A stretch of DNA of 64,000 bases, taken from positions 39,340 to 103,339 of the forward strand of contig LBRD01000006.1 in assembly GCA_000991245.1 (NCBI GenBank). The letters are read 5' to 3'. This document shows positions 12,651 to 64,000 of the stretch, in pieces. Made by a program: the position numbers and the translations under genes. Below the pieces are notes generated by a model that had not been told where the DNA came from, made no database searches, and worked only from the letters and a program-made list of their open reading frames with translations. The first letter of the stretch is position 1; each line of letters opens with the position of its first letter. Source of the DNA: Parcubacteria group bacterium GW2011_GWC1_36_108. Lineage in GTDB: Bacteria > Patescibacteriota > Minisyncoccia > Moranbacterales > GWC2-37-73.

Positions 12651-12751
12651 GAGCTCATGTAACATGTAGCATATAGCATGTAGCATTTTTGAATTCAGGA
12701 ACCCAAATGCATTTTTGTTATATGTTATATGTTGTATGTTATATGTTTAAT

Positions 12752-17030: not shown

Positions 17031-17120
17031 TAGTCATGTAACATATAGCATATAGCATGCAACAAACAGTGACATCAACAATGTGTGTTTGAATTTTTGT
17101 TATATGTTGTATGTTTTATG

Positions 17121-17891
17121 TTATATGTTTTGATTTATTATTTCTGCAATTTTAACAAACTCCATTGGAATCAAGCTTTCTCTTCCAACCAAGACACCAT
17201 CCATTCCTGGATCAATGCAAAGTTGTTTGGCAGTTGCAGCTTTCACACTGCCTCCGTATAAAATCTTGATTTTTTCAGCCACTGGTTGACCAAAAGTATC
17301 GGCAAATATTTTCTTAATCAAAATCCTAACTTCCATAATTTCATCGCTGGTTGGAACACTATCACTACCAACAGCCCACACCGGTTCATATGCAATAACC
17401 ACTGTTGCAATTTTTGAAACTGGAACATCAGCAAGTCCTTCATGAATCTGTTTGATTATAACATCGGTTGTTTTTCCATTTTGTCTATCTTCAAGTGTTT
17501 CGCCTACACAACAAATTGGAGCAAGACCCGCATTTAAAATGCTATTTATTTTCATCTTTACAACCTCATTTGTTTCATTAAAATTTTTCCTTCGCTCACT
17601 GTGCCCAACAATAGCATACTCACCGCCAATGTTTTTCACCATTGGTGCAGAAATTTCACCCGTAAAAGATCCGCGATCTTCCCAGAAAATATTTTGCGCT
17701 CCTACGGAAAAATCATTTTTTTCAATTTTACCAACAAATGATTCGAGATGAATTGATGGTGGGCAAAGAACAATTTCACACTCAGAAACATTTTTTCCTT
17801 GCAACTCTTTTTTAAAAGACTCCAAATAGCGATCCCGTTCAGCAACGGTAAGAAGGTTCATTTTTAAATTTCCCACAATCAATTTACCCAT
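17121..17891 (-). CDS. tpiA: Triosephosphate isomerase
   Basis: VGNLKMN, AIVGHSERR and YEPVWAVG motifs. Confidence 0.9.
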   Translation of the reverse strand: MGKLIVGNLKMNLLTVAERDRYLESFKKELQGKNVSECEIVLCPPSIHLESFVGKIEKNDFSVGAQNIFWEDRGSFTGEISAPMVKNIGGEYAIVGHSERRKNFNETNEVVKMKINSILNAGLAPICCVGETLEDRQNGKTTDVIIKQIHEGLADVPVSKIATVVIAYEPVWAVGSDSVPTSDEIMEVRILIKKIFADTFGQPVAEKIKILYGGSVKAATAKQLCIDPGMDGVLVGRESLIPMEFVKIAEIINQNI

Positions 17892-19582: not shown

Positions 19583-19609
19583 CAGGGCGGAAACACTATT
19601 TAACTGGGG
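19541..19609. other. Structured leader element, copy a (overlaps the annotated galT start)
   Basis: CCCTGTTAAAT...[CCCAGTTGAAT-loop-ATTCAACAGGG]...ATTTAACTGGGG. Confidence 0.7.
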
Positions 19610-19678
19610 TTGTTTTTATTTTTGATTTTGTATTTTTCAATTTGCCAGTTACCAGTTATTGATTACTGGTTACTATTC

Positions 19679-22414: not shown

Positions 22415-23053
22415 TTAAAACTCTTCAATAATATCTTCAAAAACTTTCTCCACACTTTGGTTTCCATCCACTTCAATAAGCATTCCTTTTTCTCTGTATT
22501 TTTCAATAACTGGAACTGTGACTTCATAAAAAGTTTTTAGTCTTTTGGCCACGCCATCGGGAGTGTCATCGCCTCGTTGCATCACAGGTCCACCACAAGT
22601 AGGACAAGGATCTTCATCACCGGAAATGTGTTTACCTAAAATGAAATGCCGATAGCAAACTGTGCAAGCATAACGTTTTGTGATGCGAGCAACAGATTCA
22701 TCATATGGAAGAGTAATGTAAATTGCCTTATCTATCGGCCTGTTGAGCTCTTGCAGCATTTTTTCAATAGGCTCAATTTGTCCTATTGTTCGCGGCGCAC
22801 TGTCCAATATGACGCCCTTTTGGGAAGAAACTTTTTCTAAACTATTTTTAATAACATCAACCGTGATTTCATCCGGGATCATTTCCTTATGATCATTTAA
22901 TTCTTTGATTTTCTTTCCCAACTCTGAATTTTCTCTGCCAATTTCACGAAAAATTTGCCCTGTTTCAATATGCGCAAGATTATATTTTTCAGCCAAAAGA
23001 TCTGCTTGTGTGCCCTTGCCGGAGCCTTGAGGACCGAAGATAATTAGATTCAT
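22415..23053 (-). CDS. adk: Adenylate kinase with a Zn lid (CxxC...CxxC)
   Basis: MNLIIFGPQGSGKGTQA, CTVCYRH and CPTCGG. Start trimmed because the ORF N-terminus overlaps a repeat. Confidence 0.9.
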   Translation of the reverse strand: MNLIIFGPQGSGKGTQADLLAEKYNLAHIETGQIFREIGRENSELGKKIKELNDHKEMIPDEITVDVIKNSLEKVSSQKGVILDSAPRTIGQIEPIEKMLQELNRPIDKAIYITLPYDESVARITKRYACTVCYRHFILGKHISGDEDPCPTCGGPVMQRGDDTPDGVAKRLKTFYEVTVPVIEKYREKGMLIEVDGNQSVEKVFEDIIEEF

Positions 23054-23074
23054 GCAGCATGTATCATATAGCAT

Positions 23075-23148
23075 GTAACATAAGACTCAAAGAAAAAAGC
23101 TGAATCTGTATTTTTGTTATATGTTATATGTTGTATGTTATATGTTTT
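23075..23148. repeat. Representative intergenic tandem-heptamer inverted array (CATATAG-type arm, AT spacer, TTATATG-type arm)
   Basis: CATGTATCATATAGCATGTAACAT...TTGTTATATGTTATATGTTGTATGTTATATG. Same architecture at about 19 other intergenic sites. Confidence 0.8.
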
Positions 23149-32205: not shown

Positions 32206-32282
32206 ATCTTTCTTAACTCATGGAACATGGAGCATGGAACATGCATTCTTGCTCTATGTTTTATGTTATGTGTTCTATGTTA

Positions 32283-32681
32283 TTATGCTCCTTGAAATAA
32301 TTCAATCTTATCTCCCTGTTTCAATGTTACTGTTGCTTTTTTGAATCCTGCCTTTGTCCCCATATGACGACCATATGCTTTCTTTTTAGACTTGATGTTC
32401 ACAACACTAACTTTTTCAACTTTCACACTATACATTCCCTCAATTGCCAATTTCACTTGTTTTTTTGTTGCGCTGTGGATAACCTTGAAAGTATACTTAT
32501 TGTCAGCCATTGCTTTGTGAGTCTTTTCAGTAATCCAAGGTTCAGTAAGAACACGATATGCAATATCCGAATTTTTTGCAGCAACAATCACTTCTTTTTT
32601 GTCAGCAGCCTTTTTAACTGCTTTCTTAACAGTCGGCTTTGAAGGGGTTGCTAATTCTTTTTTTTCTTCTATTACTGCCAT
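32283..32681 (-). CDS. rplW: Ribosomal protein uL23 (N-terminal extension)
   Basis: YRVLTEPWITEKTH...KVIHSATKKQVKLAIE. Confidence 0.85.
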   Translation of the reverse strand: MAVIEEKKELATPSKPTVKKAVKKAADKKEVIVAAKNSDIAYRVLTEPWITEKTHKAMADNKYTFKVIHSATKKQVKLAIEGMYSVKVEKVSVVNIKSKKKAYGRHMGTKAGFKKATVTLKQGDKIELFQGA

Positions 32682-36681: not shown

Positions 36682-36753
36682 GCCCCGTGAAATTGTTTAC
36701 CCTATTGAATTTATTTTATTCAATAGGGCGGTACTCAGCACTATTTCACTGGG
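36682..36753. other. Structured leader element, copy b (40 nt upstream of the coiled-coil gene)
   Basis: CCCCGTGAAAT...[CCCTATTGAAT-loop-ATTCAATAGGG]...ATTTCACTGGGG. Confidence 0.7.
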
Positions 36754-36764
36754 GTCAATTTTAA

Positions 36765-37031
36765 TCACTGCAAATAAGTTTTTGCTTCTTCGAGCGTTGC
36801 AATGAAATTTGCAGTGTGATCCTTAAAAATCATCACGCGATTGGTCACATTTTCACCCTTTTGATTCTTATACGAATCAGTAATGGTCAGATAGTTGCTA
36901 CCATTACTAGCTTTTTTCACATCAAAGAAATAATTTTTACCCCCAGCGCGCAGCATTTTTGAAAACACGCTTTCTTTGATTTTGTTTTCTCCGTTATAGG
37001 TGGCTGATTGGTTTTGATTTTGGTTATACAT
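36765..37031 (-). CDS. Small nucleic-acid-binding-like protein (PUR-alpha / DUF3276-like). Tentative.
   Basis: GGKNYFFDVKKASNGSNYLTITDS...RVMIFKDH...ATLEEA repeat pattern. Start trimmed to MYNQNQ. Confidence 0.3.
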   Translation of the reverse strand: MYNQNQNQSATYNGENKIKESVFSKMLRAGGKNYFFDVKKASNGSNYLTITDSYKNQKGENVTNRVMIFKDHTANFIATLEEAKTYLQ

Positions 37032-37328
37032 ATAAATTGACTTACAACTAACAATTCCCAACCAACAACACACTAATGCAAACTAGCTGCACACATGTAT
37101 TGTGGTTAAAAGTTATTAGTTATGAGTTGTGAATTATTGGTTGTTAGTTGTTTGTTATAAGTTGTTAGTTATTCATAAGCCTGGCCACTGCTCATAGTGA
37201 TATCATAGCACTTACCCAATATCACTGCAAGCATCAACGGCTGTGGATAACTTGGGGTAGGTTTTAGGTGTTAGGTTGTAGCTATTAGGTTTACAAAAAA
37301 ACAGCCCTTGCGAGCTGATTTTAGAGAT

Positions 37329-41731: not shown

Positions 41732-42307
41732 TCACATGAACACATTTTCTGCATTGTTTCTATCGCGATGCCACATTTCGGGATTGATTTTTATGTATTC
41801 TCTGATTTTATTCAGTGATTCGTCGTCGCGAATTATGTGATCATAGAAACGAGGCTGCCAAGCAAAATTCATAGTTTGACCAATATGATTTATTTCAAAT
41901 GAACATCGACCCTTATACCATCTAATTATTTTTGACAAAGAATATGGGTTATTCATAGGATTATTTTTTCCCGTGATACCACCCGTAGAGACGCGATTAA
42001 TCGCGTCTCTACGCATTGCCATGTTAATATCATTTTTGCAAATTTCAATTATCCCATGAACATGATTAGGCATCACAACAAATTCATCCAAAACAATAAA
42101 TGGAAAATGATCTGGAATTCCCTTCCAACATTCTTCTGCGATTTTTCCAATTTTATTCAACACCATTTTTCCATCCACAATCTCGCCAAAAAATTCCTCG
42201 CGATTTTTTGTGCAGATAGTCACGAAATACATCCCATTTTGAGAATAATCATAACCCTCTAATCTTGCAGATTTAATTGTGTATTTATTTTTAAATTTTT
42301 CTTGCAT
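41732..42307 (-). CDS. HuH tyrosine transposase, IS200-like / REP-associated (RAYT) type
   Basis: HuH motif MPNHVHGII and a downstream IIRWYKGRCS (Y-KG-S pattern). No tnpB partner. REP-like palindromes sit inside the gene and upstream. Confidence 0.65.
   Translation of the reverse strand: MQEKFKNKYTIKSARLEGYDYSQNGMYFVTICTKNREEFFGEIVDGKMVLNKIGKIAEECWKGIPDHFPFIVLDEFVVMPNHVHGIIEICKNDINMAMRRDAINRVSTGGITGKNNPMNNPYSLSKIIRWYKGRCSFEINHIGQTMNFAWQPRFYDHIIRDDESLNKIREYIKINPEMWHRDRNNAENVFM
41985..42012. repeat. REP-like 28-bp perfect palindrome GTAGAGACGCGATTAATCGCGTCTCTAC (copy inside the RAYT coding sequence, in frame)
   Basis: Direct reading. Identical to the copy at 42400-42427. Confidence 0.85.
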
Positions 42308-42399
42308 TTTTGTTTATTTTATATATCCATTATTGCATAAAAATTAATATAACAAAAAACGATTTCATTAGGAAATCGTTTTTTGTATAGAAACGTTGC

Positions 42400-42427
42400 G
42401 TAGAGACGCGATTAATCGCGTCTCTAC
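42400..42427. repeat. REP-like 28-bp palindrome, second copy, between fusA and the RAYT gene
   Basis: Direct reading. Confidence 0.85.
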
Positions 42428-46644: not shown

Positions 46645-46855
46645 GTAGCAAATCTGAAAGATATAAATTTTTTCAAATTTGAAGCATTGTTATATATTAT
46701 ACGTTGTATGTTAAACGATTAACTCTTGCCAATTCATAACATCCATGATATATTAAAACTTGTAATAAATCAAATGGTTATGGCATACAATTTATAGTGT
46801 TTAGCAAGAGATTGTTATATGTTATATGTTATATGTTATATGTTGTCTAAATATG

Positions 46856-50471: not shown

Positions 50472-50767
50472 TTTCCACATTTCTTTTTCCGCAAAAGAAA
50501 CGTGGAGCAAAGAAAACTCGCACCTGATGAAGGTACTGTGGCAAAAACTTCGCTCTTCGCTAAAATTTACACTTCGCGCCTACGCTTGCTAGCGGGCGCT
50601 ACGTTTTAAAATTTCTTAACGCGAAATCGCTTGTTTTTCGCCTACGTACTTCATATGGTGCAAAGGGAATGCGGGATGCAAATGCAACTAAGTAAGAGTG
50701 AGAATACTTTTTATTTTTTCGCTTGGAAGAGCACTTCCACGGGAAAAAATAAAAATGTATTCGAACG
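50472..50767. repeat. Composite intergenic repeat element (R1 module, 92-nt insertion, R2 hairpin module)
   Basis: Homologous at roughly 85-90% identity to 54661-54892 apart from the insertion. Confidence 0.8.
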
Positions 50768-54660: not shown

Positions 54661-54892
54661 TTTCCACATTTCTTTTTCCCGCAAAAAGAAACCTGGAGGA
54701 AAGAAAAGCTCGCACCGGATGAAGATACTGTGGCAAAAACTTCGTTCTTCACTAAAATCAAAGGGATGCGGAATGCAAAAAAAGCAAGAGTGAGAATGAT
54801 TTTTGTTTTTTCGCTTAAAACAAGTCTCATTGGCGTTATGTCAAAAGTTGCAATTGTTTTTCTGTGACAAAAACAAAAAGGCATTCTCACGA
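54661..54892. repeat. Composite intergenic repeat element (R1 plus R2 with a nested insertion)
   Basis: See 50472-50767. The R2 loop carries the insert AAAACAAGTCTCATTGGCGTTATGTCAAAAGTTGCAATTGTTTTTCTGTGACAAAAAC, which is also present at 61871-61927. Confidence 0.8.
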
Positions 54893-60564: not shown

Positions 60565-61263
60565 TTAGTTATTTTCGCGTATTCCACAAATATCAAAATT
60601 GTTCTCAATGCTTTTCTTTATTTTTTCCAAATCAAGTGTTTTTCCGCTTGTTATTTTTTTCATATTTGGGTTAATGGTTCGCATTTCACGATATTCTTGC
60701 AAATAATATGCCTTTGCACCCTTGATCCATTTGGCAATTTTTAAAAAATCATCTTCACTATGAATCCCTGGAACAACCGTGGTGCGAAACTCATATGGAA
60801 CACCACTTTGCATAATCATAATCACACTCATTTTTATTCTTGCAATATCGGTAGTGAGTCCTGTTGCTATGCTGTACTTTTTAGGCGAATGTTTTATGTC
60901 CATCGCAATAAAATCAACGAGCTTTTCTTTTATAATTCTTCTCAAAACATCTGGGCGTGTTCCATTGGAATCAAGTTTTACCTTATATCCCATCGCTTTT
61001 ATTTTTTTGATAAACTCAATAATATCCGGTTGTATTGTTGGTTCTCCACCAGTAATGCAAACTCCCTCAAGTCTACCCTTACGTTTTTCCAAATGCTGAA
61101 AAAATTCTTCTTCCAATTTATTCAAAGCTGGAAACTGAGACCTGATTACCAGCTCTGGATTATGACAAAAGGGACAACGAAAACTGCAACCAACAGTAAA
61201 AACCGTTGTTGCAATTGTCCCCGGAAAATCTATTAAAGTTAGTTTTTGAAACCCACCGATGCG
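60565..61263 (-). CDS. nrdG: Anaerobic ribonucleotide reductase activating protein (radical SAM)
   Basis: GCSFRCPFCHN (CxxxCxxC). Start trimmed to MRIGGF. Confidence 0.8.
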   Translation of the reverse strand, partial: RIGGFQKLTLIDFPGTIATTVFTVGCSFRCPFCHNPELVIRSQFPALNKLEEEFFQHLEKRKGRLEGVCITGGEPTIQPDIIEFIKKIKAMGYKVKLDSNGTRPDVLRRIIKEKLVDFIAMDIKHSPKKYSIATGLTTDIARIKMSVIMIMQSGVPYEFRTTVVPGIHSEDDFLKIAKWIKGAKAYYLQEYREMRTINPNMKKITSGKTLDLEKIKKSIENNFDICGIRENN

Positions 61264-61349
61264 CATATTTGTTTTTTTCTTTATCAAAAAGGAAATTTGA
61301 GGCAATTGCAAGCTGTGCGCAATTGCCTCATCATCATCCTTGCGAATTC

Positions 61350-61616
61350 TTAGCAAGAAGCGCAAGCTCCGTCGGTTACAACATATTCATTGCGATCTGC
61401 AAATTCTGCTTGTTTGCCCTTGTTCCATTGTGTCACTGGACGAATGTATCCAACAACACGAGAATAAACTTCTGTTTGTTGAAAATTCTTAAGAACAGGA
61501 TCTTTTTGATGACAAGCTTTGCATTTAGTGTAAACTTCACTACCAACTTTGTACGGCATATATTCCTCATTGTTTTCGATTGATTTGCCACAATCATGGC
61601 ATGTGTATTTTTCCAT
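61350..61616 (-). CDS. Stand-alone Zn-ribbon plus glycyl-radical domain protein, paralogous to the NrdD C-terminus
   Basis: CHDCGK...CKAC, then TEVYSRVVGYIRPVTQWNKGKQAEFADRNEY. This nearly matches the NrdD C-terminus TEVYSRVVGYIRPVEQWNKGKQAEFGDRKEY. Confidence 0.6.
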   Translation of the reverse strand: MEKYTCHDCGKSIENNEEYMPYKVGSEVYTKCKACHQKDPVLKNFQQTEVYSRVVGYIRPVTQWNKGKQAEFADRNEYVVTDGACASC

Positions 61617-61627
61617 ATTTTTTCTTG

Positions 61628-61723
61628 CCCCGTTAAATTGCGGTAATCCGCAATATTTAACTGGGGTTTTTTATTTTAATTTTTAGACCCCAGTGAAATA
61701 GTTGCTTCGCAAATTTCACGGGG
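61628..61723. other. Two tandem copies (opposite polarity) of the CCCCNGTNAAAT...ATTTNACNGGGG structured element in the leader of the small nrd ORF
   Basis: 61628-61666 and 61688-61723. Related to 19541-19609 and 36682-36753. Confidence 0.7.
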
Positions 61724-61753
61724 TAAATATTTAATCATCTCAATCAAGAACGT

Positions 61754-61945
61754 CTTCTTGATTAAAATGCTGTTTTAATAACAAGGAGTGAAAATACTTT
61801 TTATTTTTTCACTTGCACCCTCCGGGTATATATTGTCTGGACAAAATCAAAGATTTTGAAAGCCAATTAAAACAAGTCTCATTGGTGTTATGTCAAAGGT
61901 TGCAATTGTTTTTCTGTGACAAAAATAAAAATGTATTCTCACGAC
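61754..61945. repeat. Partial R1 tail plus R2 hairpin module with a nested insertion, downstream of nrdD
   Basis: GAGTGAAAATACTTTTTATTTTTTCACTTGC...AAAACAAGTCTCATTGGTGTTATGTCAAAGGTTGCAATTGTTTTTCTGTGACAAAAATAAAAATGTATTCTCACGA. Confidence 0.75.
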
Positions 61946-61953
61946 GCTAATCA

Positions 61954-64000
61954 TTATTTCTTCTTCCCCACTTTTTCAAGCTTCTTGGCGGGAACTGTGC
62001 CGCAATTTCCATTTGTATACTCTTTACGATCACCAAATTCTGCTTGCTTACCTTTGTTCCATTGCTCCACAGGACGGATATATCCTACTACGCGTGAATA
62101 CACTTCTGTTTTCTGCTCAATCACACATTTTGGACAAATAGGTTGTTCCCCTGGAATGTATCCATGCACAGGACAAATGCTAAAGGTTGGCGTAAGCGTG
62201 AAATATGGAAGTGCATAATTTTCAGCAATTTTTCTTACCAAATTTTTTACCATTTCAATGTCCCAAATACGTTCGCCCAAGAAGCCATGCAAAACTGTTC
62301 CACCTGTATATTTTGTTTGCAATTTTTCTTGCAAATCAAGAGCCTCGAACAAATCTTCAGTGAATTGCACTGGCAATTGAGATGAGTTTGTATAATACGG
62401 CTCAGCTCCATTTGTTCGAACAGCCAAATCATTGGCAAAAATAATATCTGGGTATTTCTCACGATCCTTTCTTGCCAAGCGATATGAGGTTCCTTCTGCA
62501 GGAGTAGCTTCCAAGTTATACATACTGCCAGTTTCTTCTTGGAATTTGAGCATTTTTTCTCTCATATGTGACAAGATTTCTTCTGCCAAAGCTTGTCCTT
62601 CTTTGGTGGTAATATCTTTGCCAATCAAATTAACCAAAGCTTCATTCAATCCAACCAAGCCAATGGTTGAAAAATGATTTGACCAATAAGCTCCTTGTCG
62701 CATCTTGATCGCATCTAAATAAAATTTTGTGTATGGATACAATCCTTTTTCAGTTAAACTTTCAACAAGTTTACGTTTAGTTTCCAAACTTTCTTTTGCA
62801 ATGTCCATCAAGGAATCAAGTTGTTTGAAAAATTCTTTTTTGTTTTTAGCAACATAACCAATTCGCGGCATATTAATCGTCACCACTCCAACACTACCAG
62901 TAAGTGGATTTGCTCCAAACAATCCTCCTCCACGCTTACGCAATTCGCGGTTATCAAGACGAAGTCGACAACACATTGAACGAGCATCGTCAGGATCCAT
63001 ATCTGAATTTACGAAGTTTGCAAAATATGGAATACCATATTTGGCTGTCATTTCCCAAACTGCATCAAAACGTTTGTCGCTCCAGTCGAAATTCTTAGAA
63101 ATATTGTAAGTTGGAATTGGGAAAGTGAAAATTCTTCCACTTGCATCTCCTTCAGTCATAACCTCAGCAAAAGCACGGTTGATGATGTTCATTTCCTCTT
63201 GAAATTCTCCATATGTTTCTTTTTGCGGTACACCTCCGGCAATCACAGCTTCTTTTGCCAGCGCAGTTGGAGCTGTCATATCCATTGTGATGTTAGAAAA
63301 TGGAGTTTGAAATCCAACACGAGTAGAAACATTCATATTGAAAACGAAAGACTGAATTTCTTGTTTTACTTGTGCATAAGTCAATTTATCATAGCGTACA
63401 AACGGAGCAAGCAAGGTGTCAAAATTTGAAAATGCTTGCGCTCCAGCAACTTCTCCTTGAAGAGTATAAATAAAATTAACCATTTGTCCCAAAATTGAAC
63501 CGAGATGTTTGGCAGGCTTGCAAGCAACTTTCCCCGGAACGCCAGTGAAACCTCTTCGAAGCAAATCTTGCAAATCCCAACCGCAACAATATGCTGCCAC
63601 CAATTGCAAATCATGAATGTGAAAATCTCCACTTTCATTAGCTTCGCGAATTTCTTTGGAATAAACACGATTCATCCAATATTTACTACTAACAATTGAA
63701 GCGATGTAATTATTAAGACCTTGCAAAGAATATGCCATATTAGCATTTTCCTTCACTTGCCAATCAATTTCTTGAATATATTTATCCACCAAACTTACCG
63801 CCTCATCCAATGAATGTTCCGTTTCACGAATTTTTCTGTGTTGTTCGCGATAAAGAATATATGACTTGGCAGTTTCATCAAAATCCAAAATCATCAGCAC
63901 GCGCTCAACCAAATCTTGCAATTGTTCGATGGCTGGAATTTCACCTTTTTTGAAATTTTTATTAAGCAACTGCACAACCTTATCTGCAACTCTTTTTGCG
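61954..64000 (-). CDS. nrdD: Anaerobic ribonucleoside-triphosphate reductase (class III). The N-terminus continues beyond the window end.
   Basis: C-terminal CPVHGY...CPKC zinc site and the glycyl-radical motif RVVGY. The first in-window residues (LQDLVERVLMILDFDETAKSYILYREQHRK) look like the end of an ATP cone, so the true start is upstream of 64000. Confidence 0.85.
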   Translation of the reverse strand, partial: AKRVADKVVQLLNKNFKKGEIPAIEQLQDLVERVLMILDFDETAKSYILYREQHRKIRETEHSLDEAVSLVDKYIQEIDWQVKENANMAYSLQGLNNYIASIVSSKYWMNRVYSKEIREANESGDFHIHDLQLVAAYCCGWDLQDLLRRGFTGVPGKVACKPAKHLGSILGQMVNFIYTLQGEVAGAQAFSNFDTLLAPFVRYDKLTYAQVKQEIQSFVFNMNVSTRVGFQTPFSNITMDMTAPTALAKEAVIAGGVPQKETYGEFQEEMNIINRAFAEVMTEGDASGRIFTFPIPTYNISKNFDWSDKRFDAVWEMTAKYGIPYFANFVNSDMDPDDARSMCCRLRLDNRELRKRGGGLFGANPLTGSVGVVTINMPRIGYVAKNKKEFFKQLDSLMDIAKESLETKRKLVESLTEKGLYPYTKFYLDAIKMRQGAYWSNHFSTIGLVGLNEALVNLIGKDITTKEGQALAEEILSHMREKMLKFQEETGSMYNLEATPAEGTSYRLARKDREKYPDIIFANDLAVRTNGAEPYYTNSSQLPVQFTEDLFEALDLQEKLQTKYTGGTVLHGFLGERIWDIEMVKNLVRKIAENYALPYFTLTPTFSICPVHGYIPGEQPICPKCVIEQKTEVYSRVVGYIRPVEQWNKGKQAEFGDRKEYTNGNCGTVPAKKLEKVGKKK

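Follow-up and report, generated by a model that had tools for sequence, protein, structure and literature searches.

Why would a bacterium whose anaerobic ribonucleotide reductase (RNR) carries an intact glycyl-radical loop encode such a loop a second time, on a small protein of its own? We explore this question in a 64,000-nt stretch of DNA from Parcubacteria group bacterium GW2011_GWC1_36_108 (contig LBRD01000006.1; hereafter the window), in which nrdD, a small gene for an 88-aa protein joining a predicted zinc ribbon to a glycyl-radical segment, and nrdG follow one another in that order, all on the minus strand, just as an initial annotation made from the sequence had described. The small protein is very probably a functional radical module that serves NrdD in trans, and we favor the view that it is a replaceable one, activated by NrdG; that its role in this particular genome is specifically that of a spare part after oxygen damage stands at about an even chance. 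The locus comprises the following features.

61954..64000, minus strand: nrdD, class III ribonucleotide reductase catalytic subunit (Pfam NRDD, NCBIfam)
62962..62979, minus strand: finger-loop motif SMCCRL of NrdD, double-cysteine type
62125..62175, minus strand: NrdD's own metal site, CPVH, 9 aa, CPKC, invariant in the NrdD C-terminus alignment
62017..62112, minus strand: NrdD's cis glycyl-radical segment KTEVYSRVVGYIRPVEQWNKGKQAEFGDRKEY, with the radical glycine codon at 62083-62085
61350..61616, minus strand: small open reading frame (ORF) with ATG start, 88 aa plus stop, predicted zinc-ribbon plus glycyl-radical protein
61509..61601, minus strand: predicted zinc-ribbon part of the small protein, C6-H-D-C9 ... 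K31-C32-K-A-C35-H36, with an EEYMPY motif in the intervening hairpin
61383..61481, minus strand: glycyl-radical segment of the small protein, aa 46-78, QQTEVYSRVVGYIRPVTQWNKGKQAEFADRNEY, with the Gly56 codon at 61449-61451
61353..61364, minus strand: C-terminal cysteine pair of the small protein, C85-A-S-C88 (ACASC end), conserved in the subfamily
60565..61266, minus strand: nrdG, radical-SAM activase of the NrdG2 type (TIGR02495)

Could the small gene simply be the detached end of a split nrdD, as the initial annotation allowed in case the full-length gene proved to lack a glycyl-radical domain? The NrdD of the window matches Pfam NRDD over positions 1-562 of 562 (E 1.6e-200), together with a partial ATP-cone, and scores 1045 bits against NCBIfam NF006126. 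Its 5' part lies beyond the window end, with ~50 N-terminal residues outside and no stop codon before the edge; the gene is cut by the window edge and is not itself truncated. Every motif residue of its cis loop (62017-62112) is intact. Since this NrdD keeps both its own metal site and its own Gly loop, the small gene is here not a simple piece of a split gene; a catalytic chain devoid of the module, as expected of a two-chain RNR, is not what the window holds, but it does occur at 29/66 metagenome loci and 7 genome loci described below. The neighboring nrdG scores 212 bits against the NrdG2 model TIGR02495 (cut-off 131) and most likely starts at the ATG at 61266 (MRIGGF...), not at the TTG at 61365, because its relatives begin MKIGGY, MIIGGY or MLIGGY.

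Is the small ORF, whose product reads MEKYTCHDCGKSIENNEEYMPYKVGSEVYTKCKACHQKDPVLKNFQQTEVYSRVVGYIRPVTQWNKGKQAEFADRNEYVVTDGACASC, a real gene? Among 5.8 billion proteins searched, 615 homologues were found; the best 120 of these are 80-113 aa long (most of them 85-89 aa), show 60-89% identity and, where named, belong to Candidatus Moranbacteria, Parcubacteria or Patescibacteria. Across 121 aligned sequences, C6, C9, C32 and C35 of the ribbon and Y22 of the EEYMPY motif are each invariant (121/121), as are E49, Y51, S52, R53, V55, G56, R59, P60, Q63, W64, N65, K68, E71, D74 and R75, and the whole radical motif, E-V-Y-S-R-V-V-G-Y-I-R-P-x-x-Q-W-N-x-G-K-x-x-E-x-x-D-R-x-E, is invariant or nearly so. 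As in NrdD, a four-Cys metal-site pattern is followed by the RVxGY glycyl-radical motif (here RVVGY, 121/121). Looking for the same small ORF beside nrdDG in related genomes had been proposed as a check, with its absence or decay in close relatives as the outcome that would undo the idea; the ORF was found there, in the conserved order nrdR-nrdD-small gene-nrdG, and the ratio of nonsynonymous to synonymous substitution rates (dN/dS) against the closest genome relative (L008) is 0.10 for the whole gene, with values of 0.11 in the ribbon and 0.04 in the Gly segment. By these measures of sequence conservation, the small ORF is a real gene under purifying selection. In the metagenome contig L173 (Ga0209319_1000078, 173 kb), the first 46 residues of the small ORF and the NrdD tail are the same as in the window, and L173 is probably the contig of origin or a near twin of it.

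How is this protein related to NrdD? Pfam and NCBIfam scans of the small protein return NrdD models only, with no match to PF01228 or GrcA at E<=0.01; the Pfam NRDD match is limited to positions 510-562 of 562, and the score against TIGR02487 is 41 bits (cut-off 326), so that neither the catalytic barrel nor a full-length NrdD is present. There is no dedicated Pfam, NCBIfam or PHROG model, PHROGs matching just the C-terminus of the NrdD large subunit, and a Protein Data Bank (PDB) sequence search with the family profile gave no match at E<=0.01. BLASTP aligns aa 46-88 with NrdD 621-661 at 32/43 identical residues (E 1e-19), residues 46-77 being about 88% identical to NrdD's resident loop, and hhalign of the small-protein family against NrdD C-termini gives a probability of 99.8% with 65% identity over 48 columns, covering residues 40-88. 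The small protein is thus, as far as profiles and alignments tell, homologous to the NrdD C-terminal domain, yet not an NrdD. In an AlphaFold 2 (AF2) model, the ribbon beta-hairpins have a predicted local distance difference test score (pLDDT) of ~80, the glycine sits at a beta-hairpin tip (pLDDT ~62) and the tail is disordered.

These comparisons refine the initial annotation, which had described an end nearly identical to that of NrdD, a ribbon of the protein's own, and an origin of both by duplication of the NrdD C-terminus. The likeness holds for the Gly segment, beyond which the small protein runs on for ten more residues to its ACASC end. The ribbon pattern does exist, with its four invariant cysteines, but it is built differently from NrdD's (CHDC, 22 aa, CKAC as opposed to CPVH, 9 aa, CPKC), and homology to the NrdD C-terminus can be demonstrated for residues 40-88 alone. 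We make no claim of ribbon-to-ribbon homology: MAFFT aligns EEYMPY..KC with YALPYFT..IC, and hhalign supports residues 40-88 alone.

At the DNA level, the two genes are 80% identical over 95 nt (61383-61477 against 62017-62111, repeat family D4), with no detectable similarity between small ORF and nrdD outside this core. The same codon is used at 14/27 identical-residue positions, against a background of 43%; because codon identity is this close to background, the two copies in the window are old and separately maintained rather than an assembly duplicate, in agreement with the initial annotation, and for the same reason we rejected recent gene conversion as the cause of their similarity. Codon identity is likewise near background in L009, L012 and L018. 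Elsewhere, nearly all identical residues share their codon (28/30 in L001, 27/29 in L007, 27/29 in L068), which, together with the nearly complete sharing of synonymous codons between the nrdD and small-gene Gly segments of L014 and L029, indicates recent, episodic gene conversion between both copies in these five loci, as judged from codon usage. Moreover, cognate pairs of Gly segments are 0.88 identical and non-cognate pairs 0.78, a value for cognate pairs that was reached by 0/20,000 permutations.

Can such a protein provide the radical for an NrdD that has none of its own? The ORF analysis covered species-representative genomes and 80 metagenome loci retrieved with the ribbon half alone, 66 of the latter being assessable in that the 3' end of nrdD was readable. 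At 37/66 metagenome loci the cis Gly loop is intact and the small gene present; at the remaining 29/66, NrdD stops shortly past its ribbon, and the small protein is the sole radical loop of the locus. Seven genome loci add NrdDs that end after the ribbon with decayed remnants of the loop (for example CPKCVIEQKTEVFLKVGEEELREK before the stop). The shortened tails display stages of decay, with CPKCVIEQKTEVYSRKIKNK or AEQSSTVYLKVVMAD directly at the stop, and EQKTEVFLKVGEEELREK or EQKTEMYFKVGEEG followed by further residues before it. The seven genome-derived shortened NrdDs are otherwise intact ORFs of ~690-770 aa with the identical finger loop ARSMCCRLRLDNR. Their stop codons are TAA or TAG and the sequence has decayed before the stop, on which grounds TGA recoding or read-through was rejected for these loci. 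The small proteins at loci without a cis loop all keep RVVGY, and at the metagenome loci nrdG lies almost always 3' of the small gene.

In a neighbor-joining tree of NrdD cores, the cis loop was lost in at least three places, and the small gene was lost, with the cis loop kept, in at least two (L037, L055, L062). Because such reciprocal loss is the pattern of two interchangeable providers, the small protein most likely supplies the glycyl radical to NrdD in trans, for which these loci make a strong, though indirect, case; where the small protein is present, the cis loop is, on this comparison, dispensable. The same loci bear on two further ideas: that the small protein damps the RNR, as a decoy or regulator vying with NrdD for NrdG or for a place in the barrel, or that it is what remains, without function, of a partial duplication. 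Rivalry for shared partners is conceivable with a Gly segment so nearly identical, but strong purifying selection acts across more than 120 clusters (85-88 aa, Candidatus Moranbacteria), and many lineages whose nrdD core and nrdG are intact have no other Gly loop at the locus. The inhibitor reading fails because loop-less organisms would then have no working RNR at the locus, and we regard either version as very improbable.

Is the class III RNR then a two-chain enzyme whose main and obligate radical subunit is the small protein, with the cis loop of the window a redundant relic on its way out? Loss of the cis loop has been repeated, and wherever one loop is missing among the 29/66 metagenome and 7 genome loci it is never that of the small protein; plain split NrdDs with a ribbon-less loop ORF of 50-80 aa occur in several other phyla, and the split class II RNR NrdJa/NrdJb is an established precedent (PMC9669993). 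We nevertheless consider this arrangement unlikely for the window, where the cis loop is intact, as it is maintained in 37/66 loci, and cis and trans segments co-vary within genomes. Additionally, since the lineages of L037, L055 and L062 kept the cis loop and lost the small gene, the cis loop appears functional, not vestigial.

The plain split class III RNRs form a set of their own, in which NrdD ends past its ribbon and a separate, ribbon-less ORF of 50-80 aa carries the loop (L039, L042, L047, L056, L058, L066, L067, L072, L076, L078, L081, L082). Their hosts include Saccharibacteria, other Patescibacteria, Thermotogae, Desulfuromonadales, Leptospirales and others, and in L078 the split NrdD and its loop ORF lie 1.5 kb apart. 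A different peculiarity of nrdD is ~1 kb of extra sequence at NrdD residue 343/344, near the finger loop, in L040, L075 and L085; nrdD is likewise interrupted near the finger loop in viral L144, L146, L149 and L171. These interruptions of archaeal, Candidate Phyla Radiation (CPR) and viral loci could be inteins or introns.

How might the module work, alongside a loop that is still in place? In NrdD, the zinc site keeps the radical loop correctly oriented, and oxygen cleaves the backbone at the glycyl radical (PMC5704485, PMC12288474). NrdG, encoded directly downstream, would abstract a hydrogen atom from Gly56 of the small protein, whose zinc ribbon would present the loop as the NrdD ribbon does the cis loop. 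The radical hairpin would then take the position of the resident C-terminal loop inside the NrdD barrel and generate the thiyl radical on the MCCR finger loop; because residues 46-77 are so nearly identical to the resident loop, the hairpin should fit the NrdD socket. Comparative genomics suggests that this trans arrangement can suffice for an essential enzyme, loop-less NrdDs having kept their catalytic core and nrdG. After oxygen cleavage at the glycyl radical, the 88-aa module would be remade and activated anew, and the 730-aa enzyme spared. Since both loops are intact in this genome, the small protein is here most likely a cheap, replaceable radical part. We infer the oxygen-repair role from the stress-gene neighborhoods of distant homologues and from the precedent of GrcA/YfiD, which is radicalised by the activase of pyruvate formate-lyase (PFL) and replaces the damaged PFL domain (PMC13450708).

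What is the C-terminal cysteine pair for? Of 121 sequences, 109 have C85 and 101 have C88; among the nrdD-linked genome loci L001-L022, L029 and L068, 8/26 small-protein entries lack the pair. Two classes of finger-loop motif, MGCR and MCCR, have been described for NrdD, and the double-Cys MCCR type is associated with redoxin-dependent, not formate-dependent, reduction (PMC9669993). One could suppose that the small protein acts chiefly through its Cys pair, in electron delivery or some other accessory role, the copied Gly domain being mostly a docking handle onto NrdD. The pair is found in 101-109/121 members and is absent from the tail of the window's own NrdD, whose finger loop is of the MCCR type; it would be analogous to the tails with a Cys pair in RNRs of classes I and II, and class II RNRs possess a zinc finger at the C-terminus together with a redox Cys pair (PMC5704485). 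This supposition is improbable, however, as the radical glycine and the whole motif around it are invariant and form the sole such motif in loop-less relatives, and the pair is missing not only from the 8/26 nrdD-linked entries but also from 98/106 ribbon-plus-loop members of the wider family (present in 8/106). Being missing in ~10-17% of the subfamily and in most of the wider family, it can serve at most an added function; its conservation suggests that it may have a redox or metal function hitherto unrecognised. Tails with CxxC, CxC or CC 8-12 residues past the Gly domain are seen in small proteins, in some ribbon-less split Gly ORFs and in some cis NrdDs (L007, L010-L019, L025, L026, L034, L038, L042, L043, L045, L058, L063, L069, L071).

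How far does the family extend beyond the nrdD operon? Searching 1.84 billion cluster representatives with a profile yielded 392 matches at E<=1e-10, the best 150 of which are all short (42-159 aa). Of 148 inspected representatives, 106 (median 113 aa) carry both the Gly loop and a C(H/W/Y)DC...KCxxC ribbon, and 42 have the loop without the ribbon. A second search, with wider-family sequences, retrieved 5321 clusters at E<=1e-8, the lower-ranked part of which is expected to include full-length NrdDs; the best 120 are 110-138 aa long and labelled 'hypothetical' or misnamed NrdD. At 50% identity the family falls into at least ~100 distinct clusters. Its distant members are solitary genes, placed in CPR bacteria beside genes for Fur-family regulators, rubrerythrin and desulfoferrodoxin, with further ones on viral contigs. 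Of the 17 solitary copies examined, which have neither nrdD nor nrdG within 4 kb, six adjoin genes of oxidative-stress type, as assigned by Pfam:

L035: Fur-family regulator, small gene, rubrerythrin, desulfoferrodoxin
L036: Rrf2, small gene, rubrerythrin, flavin reductase-rubredoxin
L026: small gene, rubrerythrin
L024 and L025: Fur, small gene
L034: small gene, hemerythrin

None of the 67 nrdD-linked loci has such neighbors (6/17 against 0/67, Fisher p 3e-5, in a test that is partly circular). In one Desulfobacterales metagenome-assembled genome, a solitary small gene (L030) and a full-length nrdD-nrdG pair (L051) occur on separate contigs. Viruses carry the family as well: viral contigs from IMG/VR (among L092-L142) contain 43 ribbon-plus-Gly ORF loci with no NrdD or NrdG detected within 4 kb, and a further 29 ORFs on viral contigs are loop-only, with no NrdD detected nearby. 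ANMV-1, a virus of ANME-1 archaea (KP703175.1, L172), encodes a 144-aa member (AJP62049.1, 3887-4321) that is annotated as a full 'anaerobic ribonucleoside triphosphate reductase'. Judged by their domain content, public labels of 'anaerobic ribonucleoside-triphosphate reductase' on these small proteins are misleading. The annotation can now be corrected for small proteins labelled hypothetical or NrdD, for the ANMV-1 coding sequence and for unannotated ORFs of viral contigs.

Together, these observations would fit a broader picture in which many anaerobes and viruses possess a class III RNR with a detachable, disposable subunit, radicalised by NrdG and acting as a 'fuse' (at least ~100 clusters, 50-150 aa). 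Such an RNR would have been converted repeatedly to two chains in Moranbacteria and placed in a Fur/PerR-type stress cluster in other CPR bacteria, phage copies would sustain deoxynucleoside triphosphate synthesis in the host, and the Cys pair would act as a re-reduction shuttle like those of class I and II RNRs. We give this picture, with all its parts taken jointly, even odds.

Several points weigh against our reading of the small protein as a replaceable module activated by NrdG. Activation by NrdG, docking on NrdD and rescue after oxygen are all inferred, and the AF2 model is of moderate confidence overall (pLDDT 68), with weak, generic zinc-ribbon and ribosomal-protein matches in a Foldseek comparison against the PDB (E > 0.04). 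NrdD retains its own ribbon even after losing the loop, so that two ribbons need to be accommodated. The neighbor-joining tree of NrdD cores carries no support values; the comparison read loci rather than whole genomes, and another nrdD, of full length, could lie elsewhere in loop-less genomes. That ~40% of relatives have lost the cis loop fits the principal subunit of a split enzyme equally well, and the same data accommodate the small protein as the main radical subunit, 'spare' and 'co-equal' not being separated by them. Furthermore, the stress neighborhoods belong to distant homologues (~45-55% identity) and not to the nrdD-linked subfamily, and their enrichment is partly circular because the query genes came from those same loci. 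Nor is the link to stress family-wide, because four solitary copies of Desulfobacterales type have unrelated neighbors, with no oxidative-stress or nrd genes among them.

Do the spacers around the small gene reveal how it is expressed? Two elements flank it.

61617..61953, minus strand: structured spacer between nrdD and the small ORF, 337 nt (repeat families D6, D8, D12)
61298..61330, minus strand: terminator-like hairpin between the small ORF and nrdG, a 13-bp stem followed by a T-rich tail (z -3.6)

The 337-nt spacer folds with a minimum free energy of -95.9 kcal/mol (z -7.5), and the initial annotation had granted the gene a leader element of its own. This idea had to be given up, since the repeats are dispersed in the window and absent in relatives: modules of the spacer recur at 54781-54892, 50689-50725, 19594-19620 and 36739-36765, and the nrdD-small gene spacers of the three relatives inspected (L001, L004, L007) are 34-65 nt long and lack them. 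Rfam gave no match anywhere in the window at gathering thresholds, so the spacer is no known riboswitch or leader, and a sigma-70 scan of the spacer flagged no convincing promoter. By its repeat content, the spacer is a local insertion of dispersed repeats and lies outside the system. Within it, modules 61779-61815 and 61867-61944 pair as a long inverted repeat resembling miniature inverted-repeat transposable elements or repetitive extragenic palindromes, and hairpins of the CCCCxGTxAAAT...GGGG type recur in other intergenic regions.

The hairpin between the small gene and nrdG has counterparts: across 15 Moranbacteria loci, 14 pairs are predicted, 9 of them with compensatory changes, and a AAAAGATAG motif lies on the 5' side. 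It recurs in the L001 6278-6300 region and in 13 other loci, and belongs to no Rfam family. From its sequence, it looks like a terminator, an attenuator or a protein-binding palindrome (GGGGCAAT...ATTGCCC). Such a hairpin would allow nrdD and the small gene to be expressed above nrdG, and would therefore fit a stoichiometric part rather than a regulator. Elsewhere in the window, arrays of 7-mer-like repeats (TTATATG/TTGTATG and complement) occur every 4-9 kb (12655-12749, 17034-17139, 23050-23148, 32218-32283, 37106-37173, 46667-46846), and an exact 29-nt palindrome, CGTAGAGACGCGATTAATCGCGTCTCTAC, is found twice, at 41984-42012 and 42399-42427, 415 nt apart.

What would a spare part for NrdD mean? 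A 2026 review states that spare parts are known for formate lyases alone and that their existence for other family members is 'yet to be determined' (PMC13450708); our full-text literature searches found no NrdD spare part and no stand-alone or split class III radical domain. The locus turns the open question of that review into a testable one, for the essential anaerobic RNR, and in the small protein it offers, for the first time outside PFL, a good candidate for a replaceable spare part. If the proposal is true, spare-part systems would for the first time extend to a glycyl-radical enzyme beyond PFL. Nature supplies the controls, in genomes with both loops, with the trans loop alone and with the cis loop alone. 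The module may help minimal, oxygen-sensitive CPR bacteria through transient oxygen, and a sacrificial radical module could ease the repair of glycyl-radical enzymes in engineering.

Which known systems does the small protein resemble? GrcA/YfiD of E. coli and Y06I of phage T4 are likewise small stand-alone proteins, and in their C-terminal part the radical loop of a large glycyl-radical enzyme is repeated almost exactly. As in the window, the parent enzyme keeps its own loop; as here, there are viral homologues (T4 Y06I for PFL) and some homologues are tied to stress genes. The proposed logic is also the same, the activase radicalising a small protein that replaces the damaged domain. The 88-aa protein differs in belonging to another sequence family without a PF01228 match, in most likely serving a class III RNR, in being encoded inside the nrdD-nrdG operon, and in having a predicted four-Cys zinc ribbon as its N-terminal part, not a disordered region. 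Furthermore, the parent NrdD has lost its own loop in many relatives; we know of no case in which PFL has lost its own loop alongside GrcA.

The NrdD C-terminal domain itself (T4 NrdD, 1H7A; T. maritima, 4COI/4U3E; P. copri, 8P23) agrees in the radical motif and in the helix after it, preceded by a zinc-binding ribbon as in the small protein, for which metal binding is predicted. In contrast, the small protein is a separate polypeptide with different knuckles around a 22- instead of a 9-residue insert, a linker from the last Cys to the Gly that is 6 residues longer, and the extra C-terminal Cys pair. The Cys-rich C-terminal domain of class II RNRs (Loderer et al. 2017, PMC5704485) also combines a zinc finger with a nearby Cys pair at the extreme C-terminus, although no homology to the small protein is detectable; the class II pair was shown to re-reduce the active site (PMC5704485), a role that is hypothesis alone for the pair described here. 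Finally, in the split class II enzymes NrdJa/NrdJb (for example in Pseudomonas aeruginosa), a C-terminal, zinc-finger-containing RNR module resides on a separate chain (PMC9669993). Unlike in that system, the catalytic chain of the window is complete, the module is a duplicate and not a fragment, and the detached part bears the radical site, not the reducing cysteines. The loop-less relatives, as read from their loci, are the class III counterpart of these split class II RNRs and widen the diversity of RNRs accordingly.

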